This document shows, in pieces, positions 1,147 through 10,677 of a DNA stretch of 32,016 nt (position 1 is the first letter of the stretch; each line of letters opens with the position of its first letter). Under the pieces are notes generated by a model. That model had not been told where the DNA came from and did not search any database. It worked only from the letters and a program-made list of their open reading frames with translations. Source of the DNA: a virus (Duplodnaviria > Heunggongvirae > Uroviricota > Caudoviricetes); the IMG/VR virus record IMGVR_UViG_2541047849_000007; one strand, written 5' to 3'. Made by a program: the position numbers and the translations under genes.

Positions 1147-1570
1147 GTTTTACTCCCGCAGCTCTGTGCTGCCACTTCTTCAGTTTCTCAATAACACTGC
1201 TTGCCTGTTCAGTATTGAGCCAGCGCAGGGCGCTGATGCCCGTTTCCCGCTTGATCCACCGCGCTAATGCATTTTCTGAACGGTCACGAACAATGCCGGC
1301 AGCAGCCATTTCAAGCCATAGCGCACGGATTTTCCTGGACTGCGGATGGTTATCCAGCGGTAAACCGGAGCTGGCTTTTCCGGCAGGCTTAACGCGAAAG
1401 CCTTTCCTTTTCATGGATTCCAGCACGCAGTTTAGTTGTGTGGTATCCATTCCTTTGGTTGAGGCTTTACCGGTCAGCCCCTGTAACATCTGGCGATAGG
1501 TGTCTTCATCCATACCCAGTTCATTACGGGCAATATGAATGAGCTGGATAAGACGTTGTTTAGTCATCAT
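1118..1570 (-). CDS. gemA: GemA-like protein (Mu gp16 family, DUF1018)
   Basis: About 150 aa from ATG 1568-1570 (AAGGAG RBS 5 nt upstream). N-terminal KQRLIQLIHIARNELGMDEDTYRQML resembles the GemA family. Overlaps the mor start by 29 nt. Confidence 0.65.
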   Translation of the reverse strand: MMTKQRLIQLIHIARNELGMDEDTYRQMLQGLTGKASTKGMDTTQLNCVLESMKRKGFRVKPAGKASSGLPLDNHPQSRKIRALWLEMAAAGIVRDRSENALARWIKRETGISALRWLNTEQASSVIEKLKKWQHRAAGVKHERPESVSK

Positions 1571-1775
1571 CGTTGCTCCTTTTACCTGCGCCACCGATAT
1601 AATCGACATATAAAGGAAGCGCCACAGGCCAGCACAGGAACATCACCGACCAGCTAATCCAGTAGCCGGCACCACTGTAACGTGAATAAAACCCTGAACG
1701 GCGGTGCAGTTCAGCAGTACACCAACCGACAAAACAATACCAGAACAGGGCACATACAACAGATTCAGCCGTCAT
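1560..1775 (-). CDS. Small hydrophobic protein (71 aa), unknown function
   Basis: Internal ATG 1773-1775 of track ORF 1560..1931, preceded by a G-rich RBS. Product is largely hydrophobic (VVCALFWYCFVGW ... WSVMFLCWPVALPLYV). Overlaps neighbouring genes on both sides. Confidence 0.35.
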   Translation of the reverse strand: MTAESVVCALFWYCFVGWCTAELHRRSGFYSRYSGAGYWISWSVMFLCWPVALPLYVDYIGGAGKRSNDDD

Positions 1776-1995
1776 TCTGAATATCCCCCCAACTGATATG
1801 AATATTACGGGCAGCAATGACAGGGTCGTTATTCCACCATGCACCTGACATGTATTTTTCAACCTGTTCGCGTCCGGCAATAACACCAATTGTGATCCCC
1901 GGCCTGACGTTCTTAAAAAAGGCGCGGGCAAAAAGGTATCTGGCAGATATTCGGCAGGCTTTTAATTTCCGGCTGTTACCTGATAGCGTAATCAT
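1765..1995 (-). CDS. Hypothetical protein (76 aa)
   Basis: ATG 1993-1995 overlaps the stop of the upstream gene (ATGA coupling); GGAGG RBS. Confidence 0.45.
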   Translation of the reverse strand: MITLSGNSRKLKACRISARYLFARAFFKNVRPGITIGVIAGREQVEKYMSGAWWNNDPVIAARNIHISWGDIQNDG

Positions 1996-2676
1996 CTGGC
2001 CTCCAGTTTCTGTTGTTCCTGCCCACTGACCGGGCGGTGCAGTCTGACGTTCTGCCCTTCACGAAACCCCGCATAGCGCGAGGCGTCGCCATTGCGGCTT
2101 CTTCCCGGTTTACGCGCCCTGGTGGTTTGCGTCTGCGGGTATTTATGTTCCAGCCACTGCTGCATCAGTTCACGCTCATCATCGGTCAGGGCAAAGGACT
2201 GTATTTCACTGATAACGGCCAGCACCCAGCCTTCGGCAAACTGGTCTCCACGGCTGGTGCGGGTGGCGGTTTTTATTCTTTTGTTCTGTGCACTGATATA
2301 CTGCTGACGCGCCTTTTTCAGCTGACGGGCCAGCACTTCCCAGGTGTATGCAGCCAGTGCCGCACGTTCCCGGTTGCCGTAGAACCCCACAGACGGATGC
2401 GTGCCGGGGTGAATGATGGAGTTAACACCAAATACCTCGCGGATGATGTTCATCAGGCCTGGCATGTAGCGCGGTGGACGGAGACTGCCTGTCGGCCAGT
2501 AGTGACTGATGGTTTCATCAATATCACTCATAGCAATGTCGGAATGTGTGATGCCGTGAACATCCATCAGTTTACGGGCTCGGCGCAGTGCCAGAGCGGC
2601 CTCGTGCGGGTTGCCGGATGCGGCCAGCGCCAGCAACTTTTTCAGTTTCTCAATGTGTTTATTCTGGTCTGTCATT
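1992..2676 (-). CDS. Hypothetical prophage protein, DUF2786-like N-terminus
   Basis: Start ATG 2674-2676 (GGAGAT RBS). N-terminal IEKLKKLLALAASGNPHEAALALRRARKLM resembles the DUF2786 signature from memory; needs HMM confirmation. Confidence 0.5.
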
Positions 2677-2887
2677 GTTCTGTATCTCCGGTATTTTTCT
2701 GCCGTTTCCATGCCCGGACAGCGTCGGACAGCTCTTTCAGGCTGTATGCTGCTTTAAGCTTTTCCCATAACCACTGTGTTGTTATGTGCATCAGCAGGGC
2801 AGCCAGGGCTGCCCCCGCACTGAGGCATGTCGCCAGGCCAGTAAGAATCAGTATCCATGCGGTGATTTCCCTGAGTATGTCAGCCAT
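2672..2887 (-). CDS. Small membrane protein (71 aa)
   Basis: ATG 2885-2887 with GGGAGG RBS. Central hydrophobic stretch AWILILTGLATCLSAGAALAALLM. Confidence 0.45.
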   Translation of the reverse strand: MADILREITAWILILTGLATCLSAGAALAALLMHITTQWLWEKLKAAYSLKELSDAVRAWKRQKNTGDTEQ

Positions 2888-2901
2888 TGAATGCCTCCCG
2901 G

Positions 2902-3198
2902 TTACTCGTTCGTGTAAATCACGCCCAGTCGTGCAGCCAGACGTTCCAGTTTTTTCTGTTTGTGGAAGTCAATCAGCCGGTCCATCCCCTGAAGGCGCAA
3001 TTGCTCTGTCATGATTTCCACGTCTGCCAGCTCTGCCGCGAGGTCGCTTTCGCTGCCCTGTCCGTTCAGATTGCGGGCAGCACTGGCCGCCAGTTCAGCG
3101 GCCTCTTCTGTCAGTTTCAGGGCCTGTGCGTCCGGCCCGAAACGCTGCAGGGCCAGACGGTAGAGGGCGGTGCGGGTGAGTATGGTGTTCCGTGTCAT
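2902..3198 (-). CDS. MazG-like all-alpha NTP pyrophosphohydrolase (putative)
   Basis: 98 aa. EExxE-type motif (LTEEAAELAAS) and a second acidic motif (AAELADVEIM) in the arrangement typical of MazG/HisE-type pyrophosphatases. ATG 3196-3198 with GAGGG RBS. Confidence 0.45.
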   Translation of the reverse strand: MTRNTILTRTALYRLALQRFGPDAQALKLTEEAAELAASAARNLNGQGSESDLAAELADVEIMTEQLRLQGMDRLIDFHKQKKLERLAARLGVIYTNE

Positions 3199-3207
3199 GC
3201 CGCGCCC

Positions 3208-3480
3208 TCAGTGCTTCCGGCTGACGGTGATGTGCAGGCCGCCTTCTGCAGTGGTTTCCATCCGGTACGGCACCTCATGCTCTGCCGTGTGGGTGAGTGT
3301 GTTCATCAGTACCTGCAGGGCAGCCGCCTTTCCGTTGGTTGCCACAATGGCCTGTGTGGTCATGCTGATTAGCGCCGTCAGGACGTGCTTCACATCGGTG
3401 AGGTCGCGGCATTCACACTCGTTGACATAGTGTTCAACAAGGGTTCGGGTGCGCTGTCGTGCTTCCTGTGGGGTAATCAT
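3208..3480 (-). CDS. Hypothetical protein (90 aa)
   Basis: ATG 3478-3480 with GGGAGG RBS; ATGA overlap with the downstream gene stop. No family recognised. Confidence 0.45.
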   Translation of the reverse strand: MITPQEARQRTRTLVEHYVNECECRDLTDVKHVLTALISMTTQAIVATNGKAAALQVLMNTLTHTAEHEVPYRMETTAEGGLHITVSRKH

Positions 3481-3768: not shown

Positions 3769-4299
3769 TTACTGCACATCCTGCTCAAAAGGAATTATTG
3801 AAAAATCCTCAATGTCGCTTTTAATGGAAATACCGGGAATATTTTTCACGGCCTCTTTTTCATTCAGGATAGCGTCTTTATTTATTTCCTCTTTTACACG
3901 AATAAAGCGCTCAAGCCCCAGACGTCTCAGTAATTCAATAACATTATCCGCCCCACGGATACTGACTGATGGCGGACGGTTTCGCCACTGCACCTCGCCG
4001 GTGGTAAGGTTAGCGAACTTCACCTTCCCGTTGCCGGTCAGTTCATCACGGTGCGCCTCACACCATGTCTGGATACCGGACTGCAGTTCGGCCATGCGTT
4101 TTTTCAGGCTCTCGGTGAGCGGGGCATAACGTGCGGTGATATCGCCAATGGCGTCATTCATTTCTGTTTCAGCCCTGACCAGTTCACGTTGTGCGTCACC
4201 GAGTAGTCTGATTCCCTCAATGACCTCTTCGCGTGTCCCTGGTACCCAGAGTGCCGCTGCGGCCTTGATACGTTTTGCCCCTTTTGTACTTTTTGCCAT
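3769..4299 (-). CDS. gam: Gam-like host-nuclease inhibitor (Mu Gam family)
   Basis: 176 aa with the size, charge pattern and coiled-coil character of Mu Gam. Sits downstream of transposition gene B as in Mu. Confidence 0.65.
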   Translation of the reverse strand: MAKSTKGAKRIKAAAALWVPGTREEVIEGIRLLGDAQRELVRAETEMNDAIGDITARYAPLTESLKKRMAELQSGIQTWCEAHRDELTGNGKVKFANLTTGEVQWRNRPPSVSIRGADNVIELLRRLGLERFIRVKEEINKDAILNEKEAVKNIPGISIKSDIEDFSIIPFEQDVQ

Positions 4300-4326
4300 A
4301 TTTTATGATTTCTCCGGTTGTGCTGA

Positions 4327-4596
4327 TTACCACAAAGATTCCGGCCACACGACGCGACAGCCGTGCAGTTCGAAAACGCCCTGACGGAAATATCCCCTGT
4401 GGTCATGTCCGGTATACAGATAACAGGCCTTTCCCTGCTCAAGCATGCGCATGCAATGCGCACTCCGGGAAACGCGGATGACAGGTTTGTTACCCCTGAT
4501 GGTGATGCTTTGTACATCCGTGTTCGTCGCCTTAAGCGCCATAATGGCTGACTGCACTTTGCTGATTTGCTGGTTGATACCTGTGGTGGATTTCAT
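4327..4596 (-). CDS. Hypothetical protein (89 aa)
   Basis: ATG 4594-4596 with AAGGAG RBS, immediately after the B stop (TAATAATG). Confidence 0.45.
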   Translation of the reverse strand: MKSTTGINQQISKVQSAIMALKATNTDVQSITIRGNKPVIRVSRSAHCMRMLEQGKACYLYTGHDHRGYFRQGVFELHGCRVVWPESLW

Positions 4597-4598
4597 TA

Positions 4599-5765
4599 TT
4601 AAACTCCTTTGACAACGTCAGCGTTGACCTGTGGAACCCCGATTTCAGCGGCCAGATTCATGGCGGCTATTACCAGGTTACTGACGGCCAGCGGATACAG
4701 CAGGCTGACCATATTTTTACGATGACTTCCCGGATTGCTCAGGCGGGCACGTATGGCATCCACTGCGCTGGCGTCCATAATGTCCGTCAGTTGTTTACCG
4801 GCCCGTTGCAGTTTGAACGTCAGAAATTCTTCAAGGTTATTGTCCAGAGGCAGAAGTTCGACCACCTCACAGCGCTGAACGACTTCACGGACTTCCATAT
4901 TGCGTTCAGACAGTTTTGTCGCCAGTTCCGGCTGGCCAATCAGCACGATGGACAGCAGTTTTTTGAAACCGGACTCCAGCTCAAAAAAGCGTTTGAGGTG
5001 TTTCAGTGTCGGAATGGGCAGACTGTGGGCCTCCTCAATCACCAGAACGTGGCTGAACCCCGCCTGGCTGCTGTCTTTCAGGACGCGATGCAACTGGCGA
5101 AAGCGGGCGTCCTGACTGCGTCTGATGCTTTCCAGTGGTGCGATGGTACTGATAATGGCTTCGGCAATAGCTGCTGCCTTCAGGGTTTTCCCTTTCACAT
5201 CGTTGTCTTCCATAGCGATGATGTATGGCTCGATAACAATTACCGGCGCATTCTCGCGGTTAATACGTTCAGTCAGGTCGCGGCGCAGCGTGGATTTACC
5301 CGCACCGGACTCACCGATGACGGCCATAAACCCACCATGACGGGCTGTCTGGTACAGCGCCTCACGCACGTAGCGAATGTCCGGGGTGGTGAACACATCA
5401 TCAGAACCCTGCATGGCTTCATCGGCGAACGGGTCACGGAAAAGACCAAACGCTTTTTTGGTTGCTGGAAATAACACCTGTTTTTTGAGTAACATATTCT
5501 CTTCCTCACTGAGGCTCGTTTTATCTGTGGTACCCGCTGTACGGGGCGTGGCCGCGCCCTGTACAGCATCAAAACTCTTCGTTGTATCAATCCCCTGACT
5601 TTCCAGCCAGGACGCAAGACGCCGGCGCACTTCTCCGGGGCTGGTGCGGGGCCACGCGTTATGATTCACAATCTGGGCCAGCGTGGCCTCAGAAACATCG
5701 ACAGCTCTCGCCGCCACCGCCTGTGGAATACGGGCCTCTTTCAGTTGCTGCTTCAGTACCAGCAT
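4599..5765 (-). CDS. AAA+ transposition ATPase / target-DNA activator (MuB/TniB-like)
   Basis: Walker A GESGAGKST and Walker B-like VLVIEEAH; N-terminal HTH-like region. Preferred start is ATG 5763-5765 (GAGGAGGG RBS 5 nt upstream) rather than the track start at 5792. Immediately downstream of the transposase. Confidence 0.8.
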   Translation of the reverse strand: MLVLKQQLKEARIPQAVAARAVDVSEATLAQIVNHNAWPRTSPGEVRRRLASWLESQGIDTTKSFDAVQGAATPRTAGTTDKTSLSEEENMLLKKQVLFPATKKAFGLFRDPFADEAMQGSDDVFTTPDIRYVREALYQTARHGGFMAVIGESGAGKSTLRRDLTERINRENAPVIVIEPYIIAMEDNDVKGKTLKAAAIAEAIISTIAPLESIRRSQDARFRQLHRVLKDSSQAGFSHVLVIEEAHSLPIPTLKHLKRFFELESGFKKLLSIVLIGQPELATKLSERNMEVREVVQRCEVVELLPLDNNLEEFLTFKLQRAGKQLTDIMDASAVDAIRARLSNPGSHRKNMVSLLYPLAVSNLVIAAMNLAAEIGVPQVNADVVKGV

Positions 5766-5775
5766 GTTTCCCTCC

Positions 5776-7545
5776 TCAGTTGCCGTTAACAATGCTGATA
5801 ACGCTGCTGCGGGCCGGCGTGGTCAGCGTGGCCATGACTTCATCCAGTGCGGCTTCCGGTACGCCGTCCGGGTACTGTGCTGTTAACTGGCGGTAATGTT
5901 CCGGCGTCCAGGTCAGGCCGTCGGCGCTGAACTTATCGCGCAGGGCTTTCGCGGCCTCCACATGAGTCATGGGACGCTGTTCAGTGCGCGGTCCGCGTAC
6001 GTCAGAGGCCTGACCACGCTTCGGTATACAGGCCGGAAGTGTGGCGTCATCAATATGTTTATACGGGTCAAGCCGCCCGCCGAACGGCAGCGCCTTCGCC
6101 TTGCGTGCGGCAGCTGCATCTGCGGCGTTGTCTGTACCGGTGACCAGCGCTTCGGTTTCTTTTGCCGCCATCTGCGCCGGGGTTTCCGGCAGGGCTTTGT
6201 AACTTTCGCCAAATACCGCCGCGCCTTCAGCAAAGCCAAACTCGTTCTTTCTGACCTCTTCGACCAGGAAGAACGTCTCGTGGCCGTCCTCACCGGTCAG
6301 AACCACCTGTGCCACATCGCTGCGCCACGGGTTACGGGTAATCATCAGTTTTTCACCGACCAGTACGCCCGGTACCGTTGATACGTCAAATTCAGTGCCC
6401 CGGAACGAGACACGAAGTTTTGGCGTGACTTTGCGGAGTTCTGGTGCCGCCACAGCCAGTTCACGACATACCTCAACGGAAGGCGCTTTTTTCAGCTGCT
6501 CAGCAGTAATCTTCAGCCAGATATCCGTGCGGGTTTTACCGTGGCGGCTGTGAACAGCCGTGGCGTTAAAGTGGCTGCGCCATTTCGCGGCCAGCGCGTT
6601 GAGTTCTTCCAGACTGTGAACCGGCCGGAACTTCAGACCCGGCTCCAGCTTGCGTTCGATAATGTCACGCGCCTTTTCCACCTGTCCGGTGGCGCGGGCG
6701 TTATGCGGCTTGTGCGCTATCAGGTCGATGCCCAGTGAGCGGCACATGTTTTTCGTCATACCCGCGGTGTTTGCCGAGCCGGGGTCGAGATAGAGTATTT
6801 TTGGCACGCCGTGCAGCACGTCTGCGCCGCCACGCTCCTGCATGGCGTTGATAAGCACAGAACACAGGTTCTCACCGGATTCCGCACCCGTCACATACTC
6901 AACGTAAATCCAGCCGCTGGCATGGTCGGTAATCTCGTAACTCCACACGCGGTCACTGGCGATACGGGCAAGGTTAGCGGGCTTGTTTTTGTAGAATTTC
7001 GCGCTGTCCATCACCTGCAGCCCTTTATGTCCATTGCTCAGGTAGTAAAGCGTGCAGAGTGAGGCGTCAATCTGCCAGACATGATTGGGGTGCAGACTGG
7101 CCACTTCGGTATGCGGTGCAGGGGCATCCAGTTGTTCCGGGTGCAGGCCATAGTTACGCAGGGCACGACTGATGGCATCTTCGGACAACGGGAAAAACTC
7201 ACCGGTGGTTTCATCTGTTCTGCCTGCGGAGATAAAGCCGTTAGCCCGCAGGGTTTCCACTGCATCCGCGATGGAATAGAGACGCTTACCGTTCTTGCGG
7301 GTGGCCTCACGTAGTGTGGCAGATATCAGCGCGGCTTCGTCGCGGGTCAGGGTGCTGCGTCCGGCATCGGCGCGTTTTTTGCGTTTATCAGTCACAGAGA
7401 CCTCCTTCAGCCTGCGCAGCAGAGTGGCGCGGGACATGCCAAGTTCAGCACAGGCAGCGTCGTATATTGCACCGCGTTTACCATGCCCCGCATTACGTGC
7501 CGCGCGGGCTGTTTCAACAAGTTTTTCAGTCAGTGCCGGGGTCAT
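5776..7545 (-). CDS. DDE transposase (Mu A-like, rve/integrase core)
   Basis: 589 aa. N-terminal HTH region, then a catalytic core with candidate DDE residues (HVWQIDAS ... LYLDPGSANT ... downstream E). ATG 7543-7545. Confidence 0.85.
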   Translation of the reverse strand: MTPALTEKLVETARAARNAGHGKRGAIYDAACAELGMSRATLLRRLKEVSVTDKRKKRADAGRSTLTRDEAALISATLREATRKNGKRLYSIADAVETLRANGFISAGRTDETTGEFFPLSEDAISRALRNYGLHPEQLDAPAPHTEVASLHPNHVWQIDASLCTLYYLSNGHKGLQVMDSAKFYKNKPANLARIASDRVWSYEITDHASGWIYVEYVTGAESGENLCSVLINAMQERGGADVLHGVPKILYLDPGSANTAGMTKNMCRSLGIDLIAHKPHNARATGQVEKARDIIERKLEPGLKFRPVHSLEELNALAAKWRSHFNATAVHSRHGKTRTDIWLKITAEQLKKAPSVEVCRELAVAAPELRKVTPKLRVSFRGTEFDVSTVPGVLVGEKLMITRNPWRSDVAQVVLTGEDGHETFFLVEEVRKNEFGFAEGAAVFGESYKALPETPAQMAAKETEALVTGTDNAADAAAARKAKALPFGGRLDPYKHIDDATLPACIPKRGQASDVRGPRTEQRPMTHVEAAKALRDKFSADGLTWTPEHYRQLTAQYPDGVPEAALDEVMATLTTPARSSVISIVNGN

Positions 7546-7560: not shown

Positions 7561-7878
7561 TTATCCGATTCTGGCGGCAATTTTTCTGGCACGGTCGCGC
7601 AGGGTTTCGCCATCGCAGGTTTTCACCACGTTATTTACCGGTTGCGGCGCAACTGCCGGGCGCAATGCTGACTGATGCTGCAGACGTCTTATCTGCTGCA
7701 TCAGCATCACTTCCATCGTCAGTACAAACGGATGCGCCTCCTGTGCGGGTACGCAGATTTCACCGGAAGGTGTCACCACGCGGAAACCCTGCACCATCTC
7801 CGGCAGCAGATTACACAGTGCGTGCCCCAGTGCCTCCGGGCTGTCCATCAGGATATTTTGTGTGTTATCCGTGTTCAT
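7561..7878 (-). CDS. Hypothetical protein (105 aa)
   Basis: ATG 7876-7878 overlaps the upstream stop (TAATG). No family recognised. Confidence 0.4.
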   Translation of the reverse strand: MNTDNTQNILMDSPEALGHALCNLLPEMVQGFRVVTPSGEICVPAQEAHPFVLTMEVMLMQQIRRLQHQSALRPAVAPQPVNNVVKTCDGETLRDRARKIAARIG

Positions 7879-8795
7879 TACTGCATGCCCTCCGGTCGGT
7901 TGATTTCAGGCTCCGGTTCGGTCAGCCATGCGGGGACATCGTTACCCGATGGTGCGGCATCAAGGTCGAACGTCTCACGCAATGCATGAACACTGCGTTC
8001 AATCTGGCAGACCAGACCGGCCATGAAATCTCTGGGGGTATCAATCATGTTTTTACTGCAGTATTCACACAGGGTTTCAAAGGCACCGGAGAGCCGGACG
8101 GCGATGGCAGATTCCGCCTCAACCGCTAATGCGGTCACTTCCGCCCGCAGCTTCTTCACCTCTTCATCAGGCTCAGGCGGTTGAATACGGGATTTCTTCT
8201 CCAGTTTTGTGGCCAGTTCGTTGATTTTTTCGTCCTTTCCGGCAAGCACCTGTTGCTGAGCTGCGTTAGTTTCGCGCGCTTCACGCAGGGCCTGGCGAAG
8301 TTCACGTACTGACATGCGATCAACATCATCAAGCGTCAGGCCGGCAACTGTGCCGCCGTCGGCCAGTTCGGCAAGGTCTTCATCGTCTTCAGCAACAAGT
8401 TCAAATAATTTTGCCTTACCCAAAAGCGACAACGTTGTCGCTTTTGGCTCTAGTTTTGGTGAAAGGTATTTCAAAGATGCTTTCATCATTCGTTGTGCTG
8501 CGCGCACGTGCAAACCAAGTTGTTCTTCTACAATTCCAACAAAGTCCCCGTGTGGCTCATTTTCTTTTAAGATGATCAGCCGTTTACCCGCTTCCAGCAT
8601 AGATTCAGCACTCTGCGCCATATAAAAACGTGCTTCGTGAACGATGCGATCACGTTCATAAGGCAGTCCATCACCAAACTGCTGCATGATCTCCATGCGA
8701 TGCTGTGTCATGGCATTCAGGCTGACGTTGAGATCATCCGACAGCGGTACCTCGGCGTTCAGTTCAGTGTTAACCGGTGATTTGGTGCGTCCCAT
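7878..8795 (-). CDS. Hypothetical protein (305 aa), acidic coiled-coil C-terminal half; possibly DUF3102-like
   Basis: ATG 8793-8795 with AAGGAG RBS. Family assignment is tentative and from memory only. Confidence 0.45.
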   Translation of the reverse strand: MGRTKSPVNTELNAEVPLSDDLNVSLNAMTQHRMEIMQQFGDGLPYERDRIVHEARFYMAQSAESMLEAGKRLIILKENEPHGDFVGIVEEQLGLHVRAAQRMMKASLKYLSPKLEPKATTLSLLGKAKLFELVAEDDEDLAELADGGTVAGLTLDDVDRMSVRELRQALREARETNAAQQQVLAGKDEKINELATKLEKKSRIQPPEPDEEVKKLRAEVTALAVEAESAIAVRLSGAFETLCEYCSKNMIDTPRDFMAGLVCQIERSVHALRETFDLDAAPSGNDVPAWLTEPEPEINRPEGMQ

Positions 8796-8805
8796 TGATT
8801 ACTCC

Positions 8806-9120
8806 TTACAAACGACTACCTGAAATGACACGTTGGTTGATTTCGTTAATGCGATCCTGTGCACGTGCCATCTCGTTACTGTGGGCCATGGCGATCTGCA
8901 GCAACTGGATGCCCGGTGCGAAACGCCCGTTTTCCAGTTTCAGGGCCAGTCCTTCTTCAATGAGGGTGTTGAGTGCCCGGTTGATGTTTGCCGGTGACTC
9001 GTGCAGTGCTGCCGCCAGTTCACCATTGGAAATACCGTTCAGGGCATGACCGCGCAGCGCTTTGAGTACCCGGAGGATGCGACTGCCGGAGCTTGAAACA
9101 TTCGTCTTACTCATCTGCAT
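8806..9120 (-). CDS. Winged-helix DNA-binding regulator (putative)
   Basis: ILRVLKALRGH ... ISNGELAAALHESPANINRALNTLIEEGLA resembles MarR/IclR-type winged HTH. An alternative start at ATG 9112-9114 has better GAGG spacing. Confidence 0.5.
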   Translation of the reverse strand: MQMSKTNVSSSGSRILRVLKALRGHALNGISNGELAAALHESPANINRALNTLIEEGLALKLENGRFAPGIQLLQIAMAHSNEMARAQDRINEINQRVISGSRL

Positions 9121-9166: not shown

Positions 9167-9355
9167 TCAGGCTGCCTGAGCTGTTGATTTCAGCCCCAGT
9201 TTCACGGCGATTTCATGGGATTTACCGTAACGTGCTTTGCTCTGCCCATTGAGAACGCGGTATACCTCATTGCGGTTGTAGCCGTTTTCTTCTGCCCAGC
9301 GGGTGAAAGTGATCCCGCGCTGGCGGAAGAGAGCTTTGACTTGTTCTGCAGTCAT
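9167..9355 (-). CDS. ner: Ner-like DNA-binding protein (first gene of early operon)
   Basis: 62 aa. RYGKSHEIAVKLGL resembles the Mu Ner/Nlp C-terminal helix region. AAGGAG RBS. Sits directly downstream of a strong sigma70-like promoter and diverges from the repressor gene. Confidence 0.55.
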   Translation of the reverse strand: MTAEQVKALFRQRGITFTRWAEENGYNRNEVYRVLNGQSKARYGKSHEIAVKLGLKSTAQAA

Positions 9356-9402
9356 CGTTGTCTCCTTTGTTGATGCAATGATGTTTGCCTTATGTGTGAT
9401 AG

Positions 9403-9431
9403 ATTATGGTGCAGATTATCTCACCAGTCAA
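9403..9431 (-). promoter_or_regulatory. Early promoter (Pe-like) with overlapping putative operator repeats
   Basis: On the minus strand: TTGACT (-35; plus 9426-9431), 17-nt spacer, CATAAT (-10; plus 9403-9408). Direct repeats AGATTAT at about 9401-9407 and 9413-9419 overlap the -10 and spacer. Confidence 0.5.
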
Positions 9432-9455: not shown

Positions 9456-9794
9456 ATGATCGGGTTACGTATTAAAGAAGAAAGAGAGCGTCTATCTCTT
9501 ACACAGCAAGGGTTGGCTGATGCTATCGGTGTGGCAAAGAGAACTTTTATTGATTGGGAAAAAGATCGCACTTCTCCTACTGCAGTGCAGTTATCTGCAC
9601 TATCAGAAATCGGTGTAGATGTTTTGTATGTAGTTACTGGGGTGCGGAGTCAGCCTGTTGTTGCACCTTATATGTCACAAGAAAAGAAAGAGTTAATGGA
9701 TGCATTCGACGAGATGAGCCCCGAACAACGGAGGGCAATTCTTGAGGTCGGCAAAGTCTTCATTCAACCCAAACCAAGCAAACTCGCAGGCTGA
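9456..9794 (+). CDS. XRE-family HTH repressor (lysogeny repressor candidate)
   Basis: ATG 9456. Classic HTH_3 region LSLTQQGLADAIGVAKRTFIDWEKDRTSP. Divergent from the early operon. The track ORF begins at an upstream GTG inside ner and is not preferred. Confidence 0.7.
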   Translation: MIGLRIKEERERLSLTQQGLADAIGVAKRTFIDWEKDRTSPTAVQLSALSEIGVDVLYVVTGVRSQPVVAPYMSQEKKELMDAFDEMSPEQRRAILEVGKVFIQPKPSKLAG

Positions 9795-9880: not shown

Positions 9881-9914
9881 CCGGAAAGCACTGTACTTTC
9901 CGGTTATGGCTTTT
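9881..9914 (+). terminator. Rho-independent terminator after repressor gene
   Basis: CCGGAAAG-cactgta-CTTTCCGG (8-bp perfect stem) followed by TTATGGCTTTT. Also sits at the 3' end of the convergent dam gene. Confidence 0.55.
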
Positions 9915-10677
9915 AGAAATTGCAGATCACCAGCTCACGGCGTGGAGTTGATTTGCCTGCCAGACTGTAGTTGATGTTCACTGTCTGTATGTTCAGTCCA
10001 GTGAACACCTCGCGCATCTGCGGGATGTCGTTCACCGAAATTATCATCTTTCCTCTGATGCACCGGGCCAGCTCTGCCAGCCGCGAGTAGTTCCCTTCAG
10101 GAAAATCCACACCATAGCCTTCTGTACCCAGATACGGCGGGTCACAGTAGAACAGCGTGTGCGGACGGTCATAGCGCTCAATGCACTGTTGCCAGTCCAT
10201 GTGTTCTATCACCGTTCTGGAAAGCCGCAGGTGTGCCGCTGACAGTTCTTCCTCGATACGCAGCAGGTTGAAGCGTGGCGGGGATGTGGTGGAGGTGCCG
10301 AAGCTGTGCTCTGCCACCTTGCCGCCAAACGCCTGCTTCTGGAGGTAGTAGAACCGTGCTGCACGCTGGATATCCGTCAGTGTTTCTGTCGGGGTGATCT
10401 GCAGCCATTTGTAGATCTGCCGGCTGACCAGCGCCCATTTGAACTGGCGGACAAATTCTTCCAGATGATGTTTTACCACCCGATACAGATTTACCAGTTC
10501 ACCATTGATATCGTTAATGACTTCGAGCTTACCAGGTGTCTTAAGAAAATAGAGCGCTGCTGCGCCGCAGAACGGCTCCACGTAACATTCATGCGCCGGA
10601 AACAGCGGCAGGATGTGTTTTGCCAGGCGACGTTTGCCACCAATCCATGGAACGATGGGTAATGTCTGCATTTTCAT
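9913..10677 (-). CDS. dam: DNA N6-adenine methyltransferase (Dam/D12 class)
   Basis: 254 aa. Motif I region VEPFCGAAALYF and catalytic motif IV DPPY (FYCDPPYLGTEGYG). Confidence 0.85.
   Translation of the reverse strand: MKMQTLPIVPWIGGKRRLAKHILPLFPAHECYVEPFCGAAALYFLKTPGKLEVINDINGELVNLYRVVKHHLEEFVRQFKWALVSRQIYKWLQITPTETLTDIQRAARFYYLQKQAFGGKVAEHSFGTSTTSPPRFNLLRIEEELSAAHLRLSRTVIEHMDWQQCIERYDRPHTLFYCDPPYLGTEGYGVDFPEGNYSRLAELARCIRGKMIISVNDIPQMREVFTGLNIQTVNINYSLAGKSTPRRELVICNF

Follow-up and report, generated by a model that had tools for sequence, protein, structure and literature searches.

In phage lambda, the repeats of the replication origin (ori) lie inside gene O, the N-terminal domain of O binds with type specificity, and the C-terminal domain of O contacts P. 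In ParB/Spo0J systems, the parS site is likewise found inside the parB gene. In phage Mu, the repressor c and the transposase MuA share an N-terminal operator-binding domain, and domain I-alpha of MuA acts at the enhancer (internal activation sequence, IAS)/operator. To our knowledge, everything that is known about the control of phage transposition has been learned from Mu, whose transposase is unrelated to the one considered here. In this work we analysed a stretch of 32,016 nucleotides (nt) from a virus of the Caudoviricetes (IMG/VR record IMGVR_UViG_2541047849_000007), hereafter the window, and in particular three open reading frames (ORFs) on its minus strand: 8806-9120 (104 amino acids, aa), encoding a winged-helix protein; 7878-8795 (305 aa), encoding a protein of the DUF3102 family; and 7561-7878 (105 aa), here called orf105. 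The DUF3102 gene encloses a perfect palindrome of 26 base pairs (bp), and the bases of this palindrome covary with residues of a predicted recognition helix of the same protein. Judging from sequence comparisons and a structural model, we give a probability of about one half to the reading that the DUF3102 protein is a dimeric, site-specific adaptor linking this internal site to the transposase.

The window contains the early operon of a transposable prophage of the BcepMu/B3 type (Bcepmuvirus/Beetrevirus). A divergent cI/XRE-type repressor stands next to a Cro-like gene of the BcepMu gp16 family that heads the leftward operon, in the same layout as in BcepMu, B3 and phiE255. Further downstream are a Tn552/IS481-like rve transposase and an AAA_22 'ExeA-like' ATPase, and then Gam, GemA and Mor. 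The transposase shares 66-67% identity with its BcepMu and phiE255 counterparts, and BLASTP detected no similarity to MuA. The closest phage, Escherichia phage PhiKM, is assigned to Bcepmuvirus, and its early region is 95% identical to that of the window. Prophages of several Escherichia coli chromosomes match the early region with 100% identity, and the region was found in 644 of 5426 complete E. coli genomes. A preliminary description of this DNA had compared the region with Mu, in which ner (1099-1326) is indeed directly followed by A (1328-3319), and the three ORFs do lie between the Cro/Ner-like gene and the rve transposase (Table 1). The first early gene, however, is not the ner for which it had been taken: it scores 98 bits against TIGR04111, the BcepMu gp16 family (cut-off 34), versus only 17.8 bits against HTH_35 (PF13693; cut-off 25), and a functional analogy to Ner or Cro would follow from its position. 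Since the transposase has no similarity to MuA and the first early gene does not belong to the Mu Ner family, the comparison with Mu is architectural only.

The three genes had also been regarded as additions to the Mu plan. This holds for orf105, which is a lineage-specific extra, but not for the winged-helix and DUF3102 genes, which by synteny are part of the core of the BcepMu/B3-type operon. Scanning a single representative genome for each species yielded 63 loci, which came from Enterobacterales, Burkholderiales, Pseudomonadales, Cellvibrionales and others and were analysed together with phage loci. In a phmmer survey of about 60 species, nearly all intact loci have the order winged-helix gene, DUF3102 gene, transposase (tnpA), ATPase (tnpB); the winged-helix gene directly precedes the DUF3102 gene in about 55 of 60 loci, and the DUF3102 gene is always immediately upstream of either the transposase or orf105. 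With tblastn, homologues of the 104-aa and 305-aa proteins were found adjacent to each other and upstream of the transposase in BcepMu (gp12, gp10), phiE255 (gp42, gp41), B3 (ORF14, ORF13), PM105, phiSHP3, Bise, JBD25, KP12 and a 'Microcystis' phage, and the same order is present in Mae-JY22. The winged-helix protein, the DUF3102 protein, the transposase and the AAA+ ATPase are therefore encoded by a four-gene cassette that is inherited together across Gamma- and Betaproteobacteria. In phage KS10, a BcepMu gp10-like gene is located directly upstream of a D3112-type transposase, and the listing has no winged-helix gene in the interval from there to the Cro-like gene (PMC2628397). The window resembles BcepMu, phiE255 and B3 in several respects: the winged-helix and DUF3102 genes stand, in an identical order, directly ahead of an rve transposase and an AAA_22 ATPase of the same kind, the divergent cI-type repressor and the gp16-family Cro-like gene are shared, and a palindrome is present at homologous codons. 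It differs from them in having orf105 between the DUF3102 gene and the transposase, and in lacking their variable ORFs between the Cro-like and winged-helix genes, such as the 'CII-like' ORF15 of B3. Finding three more genes here than in Mu is thus ordinary: the order is the norm in this phage family, has stood for a long time in the genome records of BcepMu and B3, and recurs in the annotation of hundreds of genomes.

These genes are not chance ORFs, because each has a full-length match to a PHROG family (E = 9e-45, 4e-141 and 7e-67 for the winged-helix protein, the DUF3102 protein and orf105) and their ratios of nonsynonymous to synonymous substitution rates (dN/dS) relative to PhiKM are low (0.03, 0.22 and 0.30, respectively), as expected under purifying selection. 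The matched PHROG families are labelled 'unknown function' or 'transcriptional regulator'. In Pfam, NCBIfam, PHROGs and PADLOC, none of the three proteins matches a transposition accessory or target-selector family (TniQ/TnsD, MuB-type or others); the PADLOC defence models gave weak helix-turn-helix (HTH) matches only and no defence-system hit, and a sequence search of solved structures returned nothing meaningful for any of the three. No function is annotated for any of these genes in the BcepMu, phiE255 and B3 records, and relatives are annotated as hypothetical protein, DUF3102 or 'transcriptional regulator', with no known accessory role in transposition among them. Most ORFs of the operon transcribed from the early promoter pE also have no assigned function in an RNA-seq study of the B3-like phage Fc02 (PMC9936078).

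The palindrome in the DUF3102 gene and its candidate reader

The palindrome of the window (CAAAAGCGACAAC-GTTGTCGCTTTTG; Table 1) is extended by a flanking C/G to a perfect palindrome of 28 bp (CCAAAAGCGACAAC-GTTGTCGCTTTTGG, 8420-8447). It is the only 26-mer of the window with at least 12 of 13 symmetric pairs, where none is expected by chance, and the whole genome of B3 likewise has no second site of this kind. Different perfect palindromes are found at the same codons in PhiKM (CCAAAACGCTCAGC-GCTGAGCGTTTTGG, also written CAAAACGCTCAGC-GCTGAGCGTTTTG), B3 (CAAAACGGACAAC-GTTGTCCGTTTTG), phiE255 (CAAAACGGACAGC-GCTGTCCGTTTTG) and BcepMu (TTCAAAAGCGGCGTT-AACGCCGCTTTTGAA). Across 69 loci, the homologous position has 13 of 13 pairs in 27 loci, 12 in 14 and 11 in 10 (at least 11 pairs in 51 of 69), and no other position in the same gene set rises above 10 of 13. 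The symmetry is maintained while the sequence itself changes. Among 46 distinct variants, 92.1% of the cells are paired, compared to 71.1 +/- 1.3% in shuffles (0 of 500 shuffles were as high) and 32-49% in slid controls; 11 of the 13 pairs have changed on both sides, and double-change cells number 117 where 39 are expected. Through these compensatory changes both arms come to encode different amino acids, and the symmetry is out of frame, with no rationale at the protein level. Moreover, the central tetranucleotide is GCGC, ACGT, TTAA or TCGA, meaning that the symmetry continues through the centre, and a link is visible even at the synonymous level: leucine is encoded by CTN after GCG and by TTR after ACG. 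Neither the central symmetry nor this codon link would be needed for a hairpin loop, which favours a double-stranded dyad site.

A half-site-like sequence (CAAAGGAGACAAC, 2 mismatches to one half of the palindrome) at 9357-9369 overlaps the ribosome-binding site of the Cro-like gene, and is within chance expectation. The ATPase gene contains a second, imperfect palindrome at 5539-5564 (GTACGGGGCGTGG-CCGCGCCCTGTAC, 11 of 13 pairs), which is conserved in PhiKM.

The residues that could read the palindrome were sought by covariation, comparing 83 variable residue columns of 47 distinct N-terminal modules (N-modules) of the DUF3102 protein, with the palindrome-encoded residues excluded, to each variable position of the palindrome. 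Residue 101 explains 91% of the variation in column 10 and 100% of that in column 11: Q101 occurs with GC in 24 of 24 cases and R101 with CG in 13 of 13, and V, A, H, S and Y accompany other dinucleotides. The normalised mutual information of this residue is 0.95, compared to 0.55 for the next best residue and a maximum of 0.38 in shuffles. Residue 102 explains 100% of column 14 (R with C, 26/26; K, L, V, H or Q with A, 21/21), and residue 99 predicts column 13 better than any other residue does (T with C, 21/23; I or A with A, 14/14). All three residues belong to the predicted helix 97-110. When mapped onto a tree of the remaining module sequence, residue 101 shows at least 17 state changes and the dinucleotide at least 16; kinship is allowed for by this parsimony count and the comparison of ranks only. 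The residues between the helix and the palindrome associate much less with its bases, and therefore simple linkage is an insufficient explanation. From the covariation and the predicted helix, we infer that the N-module, acting as a symmetric dimer, very probably binds this site of its own gene.

By score, the membership of the protein in DUF3102 (PF11300) is marginal, with 24.8 bits against a gathering cut-off of 24.4 (E = 2.7e-5, residues 65-172). Six diverse homologues all match DUF3102, and this is the sole family that recurs in their weak-hit Pfam scans. The family is large, with 1333 clusters at 50% identity matching the N-module, and has no recorded function. AlphaFold2 with an alignment of 126 sequences produced an all-helical model with a predicted local distance difference test (pLDDT) score of 90.8; with 22 sequences the pLDDT was 63 and the Foldseek matches were noise. 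In this model the N-module is compact (helices 48-79, 82-92, 97-110, 116-123 and 127-133), and an acidic linker leads from it to a conserved GGTxAGLxLDDxxRMSxRELRxALR segment, after which come two helices of 40 residues each and one last helix. The 'acidic coiled-coil' of the preliminary description is borne out by the isoelectric point (pI) of 4.83, the net charge of -18 and the long helices at 163-202 and 209-248. The N-module has an HTH pattern, HGxFxxIVxxxLG-x3-R-x-A-x-x-M, the second helix of which is helix 97-110; the model places helices 82-92 and 97-110 on either side of a turn at G94, with conserved R98, A100 and R102, and Foldseek found no significant neighbour among solved structures. 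Against BFVD, Foldseek retrieved only other DUF3102 or uncharacterised phage proteins. The core of the N-module (residues 46-135) is basic (pI 9.0), with conserved R48, R50, K71, R72, K77, R98, R102, K109 and K129. Some members of the family (P0198, P0233, P0254, P0281 and P0290) have N-terminal extensions of ~250 residues with CxxC...C...H repeats or an ASCH domain; nothing beyond such Cys-rich extensions or the ASCH domain was seen when the longer members were inspected for informative fusions.

Exchange of the N-module and its fusion with repressors

The N-module behaves as an independently assorting cassette. Between BcepMu and phiE255 it is 36% identical, compared to 77-99% for the repressor, the winged-helix protein, the C-terminal half of the DUF3102 protein, the transposase and the ATPase. 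Besides the N-module, BcepMu (locus L003) and phiE255 (L005) differ by a swap in just one more early protein, that of the Cro-like gene (43% identity). When the window is compared to PhiKM, the neighbouring proteins are 98-100% identical with a synonymous divergence (dS) of 0.03-0.15, against 74% aa identity, a dS of 0.84 and an omega of 0.27 for residues 36-135. E. coli prophages carry many N-module alleles, ~70-80% identical to each other and all under purifying selection.

Correlations between module identities were calculated for 51 loci plus the window, and separately for the Enterobacterales. Over all loci, the identities of the C-terminal module (C-module) follow those of the transposase (Spearman 0.90-0.91) more closely than the transposase follows the ATPase (0.79-0.84), and the values for the N-module and the winged-helix protein are 0.52-0.63. 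The C-module is the fastest-evolving part of the DUF3102 protein, with a mean identity of 32%. Within the Enterobacterales, divergence runs in parallel in the winged-helix protein, the C-module and the transposase (0.84-0.90; winged-helix protein versus transposase 0.90), and the identities of the N-module are uncorrelated with those of the repressor, the winged-helix protein and the transposase (0.16-0.24), the repressor and the N-module being two independent hot spots for allele replacement. We rejected the possibility that the N-module follows the repressor (immunity) allele, as a model based on the Mu operator/enhancer predicts: the Spearman coefficient is 0.16 and counter-examples exist in both directions, one of them being the window and L012, in which the repressors are 94% and the N-modules 72% identical. 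Pairwise identities also led us to reject the Cro-like gene and the winged-helix protein as genes that the N-module would follow.

The N-module is also found outside the early operon. A fusion gene occupies the repressor position in prophages of Arsenophonus, Sodalis, Symbiopectobacterium, Hamiltonella and the Plautia symbiont: it encodes a DUF3102 N-module (window residues ~27-190), a coiled coil and a C-terminal XRE repressor, in this order. The repressor part is 38% identical to the window repressor over its whole length. The fusion gene and the early DUF3102 gene share an inverted repeat of ~400 nt that is 90-92% identical within each phage, compared to 60-70% aa identity of the N-module between the symbiont phages. 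Such within-phage matching is what one would expect if both proteins must read the same site. In L039 both copies retain the palindrome, on both sides of pE. The fusion is also present in L038, L043 and L047, fragments of it in L040 and L065, and ~25-30 protein clusters have this architecture. The operator and the Cro-like and winged-helix genes lie between the arms of the inverted repeat, and recombination between these arms would invert the early control region.

Possible roles of the DUF3102 protein

Food for thought is what a protein that reads a site in its own gene could do for a transposable phage. In the adaptor reading that we favour, the second helix of the N-module HTH (97-110) would read the 26-bp dyad site ~50 nt downstream in the same coding sequence, and dimerisation through the coiled coil would give the protein a symmetry in keeping with that of the palindrome. 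With reader and site in one cassette of ~300 bp, specificity could change or be exchanged between phages without disturbing other genes, which matches the observed exchange pattern. Less certainly, the fast-evolving C-module might be matched to the neighbouring transposase, and the adaptor would then tie the transposase, or the assembly of the transpososome, to a single internal site of the phage genome. In the symbiont prophages, a repressor with an acquired N-module would compete for that same site. A further and more doubtful idea, which we put forward as possible rather than probable, is that BcepMu/B3-type phages have split off the job of the MuA N-terminal domain into a separate, dimeric enhancer-binding adaptor whose C-module would recruit or organise the unrelated DDE transposase, with reader and site forming a portable cassette that the repressor has captured in some lineages. 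If true, the split-off adaptor and its capture would constitute a second, transposition-level determinant of immunity.

The proposed arrangement is comparable to lambda O/ori/P, in that a two-module protein would read, with its N-module, a site in its own coding sequence, reader and site would be exchanged as a cassette, and the C-module would be matched to the product of the next gene. It differs in that there is no sequence relationship or detectable fold relationship to the lambda proteins, that one palindrome takes the place of four repeats, and that the partner would be a DDE transposase instead of a helicase loader; origin activity is not expected. With Mu it would share an internal, site-specific DNA contact associated with the transposase, and the repressor of the symbiont prophages shares a module with an early protein of the transposition module, as Mu c does with MuA. 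Unlike in Mu, the function would be exerted in trans by a separate polypeptide, and the site is located outside the operator region. We rejected homology of either the winged-helix protein or the DUF3102 protein to the MuA N-terminal domains or the Mu repressor, all hhalign probabilities being below 1%. ParB offers a third parallel, as an HTH protein with a palindromic cognate site inside its own gene, to which a weak Foldseek resemblance to Spo0J-parS can be added (E about 6, probability 0.12-0.14). However, this match is not significant, and the DUF3102 protein has neither the N-terminal CTPase domain of ParB nor a ParA partner.

Several observations weigh against the adaptor. The recognition helix is encoded only 45-75 nt from the palindrome, and part of the association could be co-inheritance. 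No recognisable palindrome is present at the homologous position in PM105, Bise and the genome loci L053, L061, L063, L067 and L069, and the genome loci were fetched with N-module peptides, which biases the sample to one type of N-module. A search for further copies or half-sites near other regulatory regions, in the window and in the whole of B3, gave nothing beyond chance. In the PDB, the highest-ranking Foldseek matches were to the Raf1 alpha domain (E = 0.7) and to ParB/Spo0J-parS (E about 6); the HTH assignment is accordingly based on secondary structure and sequence pattern, and the DUF3102 protein as a whole is acidic (pI 4.8). Alignment of the winged-helix protein and of the DUF3102 N-module to MuA residues 1-250 and to Mu c with hhalign gave probabilities of 0.4-0.5%. 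A Mu-like version, in which the site would be the operator of the repressor, is contradicted by the independent assortment of N-module and repressor alleles. Finally, plain physical linkage could account for the correlation between the C-module and the transposase.

Alternatively, a DUF3102 dimer bound to the palindrome might serve as an autoregulatory operator or roadblock that limits expression of the transposase and the ATPase, with no need for contact to the transposase. It would stop or weaken transcription, or elongation coupled to translation, and would thereby exert negative feedback on the dose of transposase. This is the strongest competitor, though on balance we regard it as rather unlikely. 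The covariation of reader and site fits it equally well, and the site is unique in the genome and well placed for such a role, inside the early operon ~0.9 kb upstream of the transposase start. The pE transcripts of Fc02 dwindle distally (PMC9936078), and in L039, where a palindrome stands on either side of pE, the N-module-bearing repressor could strengthen repression through looping or as a roadblock. What a roadblock leaves unexplained is why the C-module tracks the transposase more tightly than the ATPase does, although linkage could again be the reason, and a variable C-module of 140 residues would be unneeded.

The preliminary description had instead given the regulatory role to the winged-helix protein, acting at the operator or the prophage ends, and would leave the 305-aa protein as a structural component without DNA specificity. 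The winged helix itself is well supported (HTH_IclR, E = 3e-6, above the Pfam cut-off; the N-terminal IclR-type HTH, PF09339, scores 27.3 bits against a cut-off of 22). From the likelier start, the protein has 102 aa, is basic (pI 10.7) and consists of a stand-alone IclR-type winged helix followed by a C-terminal helix. Several phage records annotate it as 'IclR family', with which it shares the HTH domain; the regulators of that family, however, have ~250 aa and an effector-binding domain, whereas no C-terminal IclR effector-binding domain is present in the 102-104 aa of this protein, and the NCBIfam IclR-type equivalogs remain far below their cut-offs. Its gene belongs to the core of the cassette and diverges in step with the transposase in the Enterobacterales, and the protein is probably a separate small DNA binder. 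Yet E. coli prophages that differ in their palindromes have winged-helix proteins of 99-100% identity, and hence this protein is not the reader of the palindrome's specificity; the repressors of such prophages are only 34-35% identical, and it thus follows the specificity neither of immunity nor of the palindrome. The covariation, moreover, names a helix of the DUF3102 protein as the reader of the only conserved cis-element found. We therefore consider it unlikely that the winged-helix protein is the key extra regulator; it is nonetheless compatible with an adaptor function of the DUF3102 protein, and the two can coexist. The earlier interpretation is partly supported, and an additional layer of control on transposition, as it had suggested, may exist and is a reasonable idea.

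It seems still less likely that the genes, orf105 above all, are cargo for host takeover, exclusion or anti-defence that takes no part in transposition. Early regions of transposable phages carry accessory genes, and genes of the Fc02 early region do show superinfection exclusion (PMC9936078); the N-module is a hot spot for allele replacement, as is often the case for exclusion or defence determinants. But the winged-helix and DUF3102 genes are not patchy, standing beside the transposase in nearly every locus, and no defence-system model was hit. The patchy orf105 (410 of 644 E. coli prophages) may be such cargo. Least likely of all is that the palindrome works merely as an RNA hairpin or a DNA cruciform or hairpin (in processing, stability, pausing or recombination) with the residue/base association hitch-hiking by linkage, since for all the pairing preserved by compensatory changes and the 12-bp stem with a 4-nt loop as which a terminator scan first flagged it, the symmetry runs with synonymous-codon covariation through four central bases that cannot pair in a hairpin, no conserved U-run follows the stem on either strand, and three residues of one helix predict different bases far better than residues nearer to the site do.

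The palindrome, its covariation with a helix of the DUF3102 protein, the cassette of reader plus site and the fusion with the repressor appear to be new: we found in the literature no function for these genes and no mention of the palindrome, a statement to which the BcepMu and B3 genome papers might hold an exception. Prophages of this type are present in ~12% of complete E. coli genomes and have relatives in many Proteobacteria. If the DUF3102 protein does bind the palindrome in its own gene, the family would acquire a molecular function and these phages a defined cis-element, and a link between de-repression and transposition, if real, would become accessible to simple experiments. The Q101-GC, R101-CG and R102-C correspondences would make up a small natural recognition code that could be re-engineered.

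The early operon and its remaining genes

The features of the early region are collected in Table 1. The preliminary description had called the genes of the operon translationally coupled. Strictly, this is the case only for the DUF3102 gene and orf105, which overlap in a TAATG; the other junctions are gaps of 52 nt (Cro-like stop to winged-helix start), 10 nt (winged-helix stop to DUF3102 start, with an AGGAG) and 15 nt (orf105 stop to transposase start). The winged-helix gene is present, as had been described, but is likelier to begin at the ATG at 9114 than at 9120, because an AGAGG lies 7 nt upstream of that ATG, the alignment of homologues begins there and the RefSeq start agrees.

Table 1. 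Features of the early region, in window coordinates unless another locus is named.
Feature	Position	Strand	Evidence or remark
Candidate early promoter pE (TTGACT-17-CATAAT)	9403-9431	-	Consensus scan, 10/12 matches; faces the early genes, upstream of the Cro/Ner-like gene
cI/XRE-type repressor, 112 aa, divergent	9456-9794	+	HTH_3 E = 1.6e-7; RefSeq CDS there
Cro/Ner-like HTH protein, 62 aa, first early gene	9167-9355	-	TIGR04111 98 bits; phrog_925 E = 4e-33
Winged-helix protein, 102 aa (104 aa from 9120)	8806-9114	-	HTH_IclR 27.3 bits; phrog_1368 E = 9e-45
DUF3102 protein, 305 aa, pI 4.8	7878-8795	-	PF11300 24.8 bits; phrog_1748 E = 4e-141
DUF3102 N-module, residues 36-162, independently assorting cassette	8310-8690	-	Identity and dS versus PhiKM
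Predicted recognition helix, residues 97-110	8466-8507	-	AlphaFold2 model; residue/base covariation
Perfect 26-bp palindrome, candidate DUF3102 dimer site	8421-8446	.	Symmetry scan; compensatory changes
DUF3102 coiled coil and C-module, residues 163-305	7881-8309	-	Pairwise identities track the transposase
orf105, 105 aa, lineage-restricted insertion	7561-7878	-	phrog_5446 E = 7e-67
rve (DDE) transposase, BcepMu/B3 type, 589 aa	5776-7545	-	rve E = 1e-8; phrog_310 E = 8e-147
AAA_22 'ExeA-like' ATPase (MuB analogue), 388 aa	4599-5765 (or to 5792)	-	AAA_22 E = 4e-20; phrog_296 E = 5e-93; RefSeq CDS
Gam gene	3769-4299	-	Listed in the minus-strand early series
Fusion repressor of symbiont prophage locus L039 (coordinates of that locus)	4199-5179	-	Inverted-repeat arms 4715-5122 / 6097-6504

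The pE of phage Fc02 has been mapped by RNA-seq, and its position agrees with that of our candidate, which is a good promoter sequence of sigma-70-like type (PMC9936078 for Fc02). As for orf105, it is a later, lineage-restricted insertion under purifying selection. It accompanies the early region in about two thirds of the E. coli genomes and is absent in Klebsiella phage KP12 and in almost all other genera, where the stop of the DUF3102 gene abuts the start of the transposase. A homologue of 57 aa occupies the same position in Xenorhabdus, with a shared conserved core of ~45 residues; searches of Pfam, NCBIfam, PADLOC and the PDB gave no match for orf105.

We rejected a terminator, either after the Cro-like gene ('ner') or at the palindrome: the matches to the consensus are weak, and their number in the region (6, compared to 2.9 +/- 1.5 in shuffles) is a modest excess. 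A weak terminator-like hairpin at 9167-9179, consisting of a 5-bp stem and then ATATTTTGAT, overlaps the stop codon of the Cro-like gene, and could attenuate transcription into the transposition genes. A terminator near the winged-helix gene is annotated in the record of the related phage vB_PaeS-D14F. Finally, a gene for a Dam-type N6-adenine methyltransferase (9913-10677, minus strand) adjoins the repressor gene, and its homologue in the symbiont prophage L039 is split by a frameshift.

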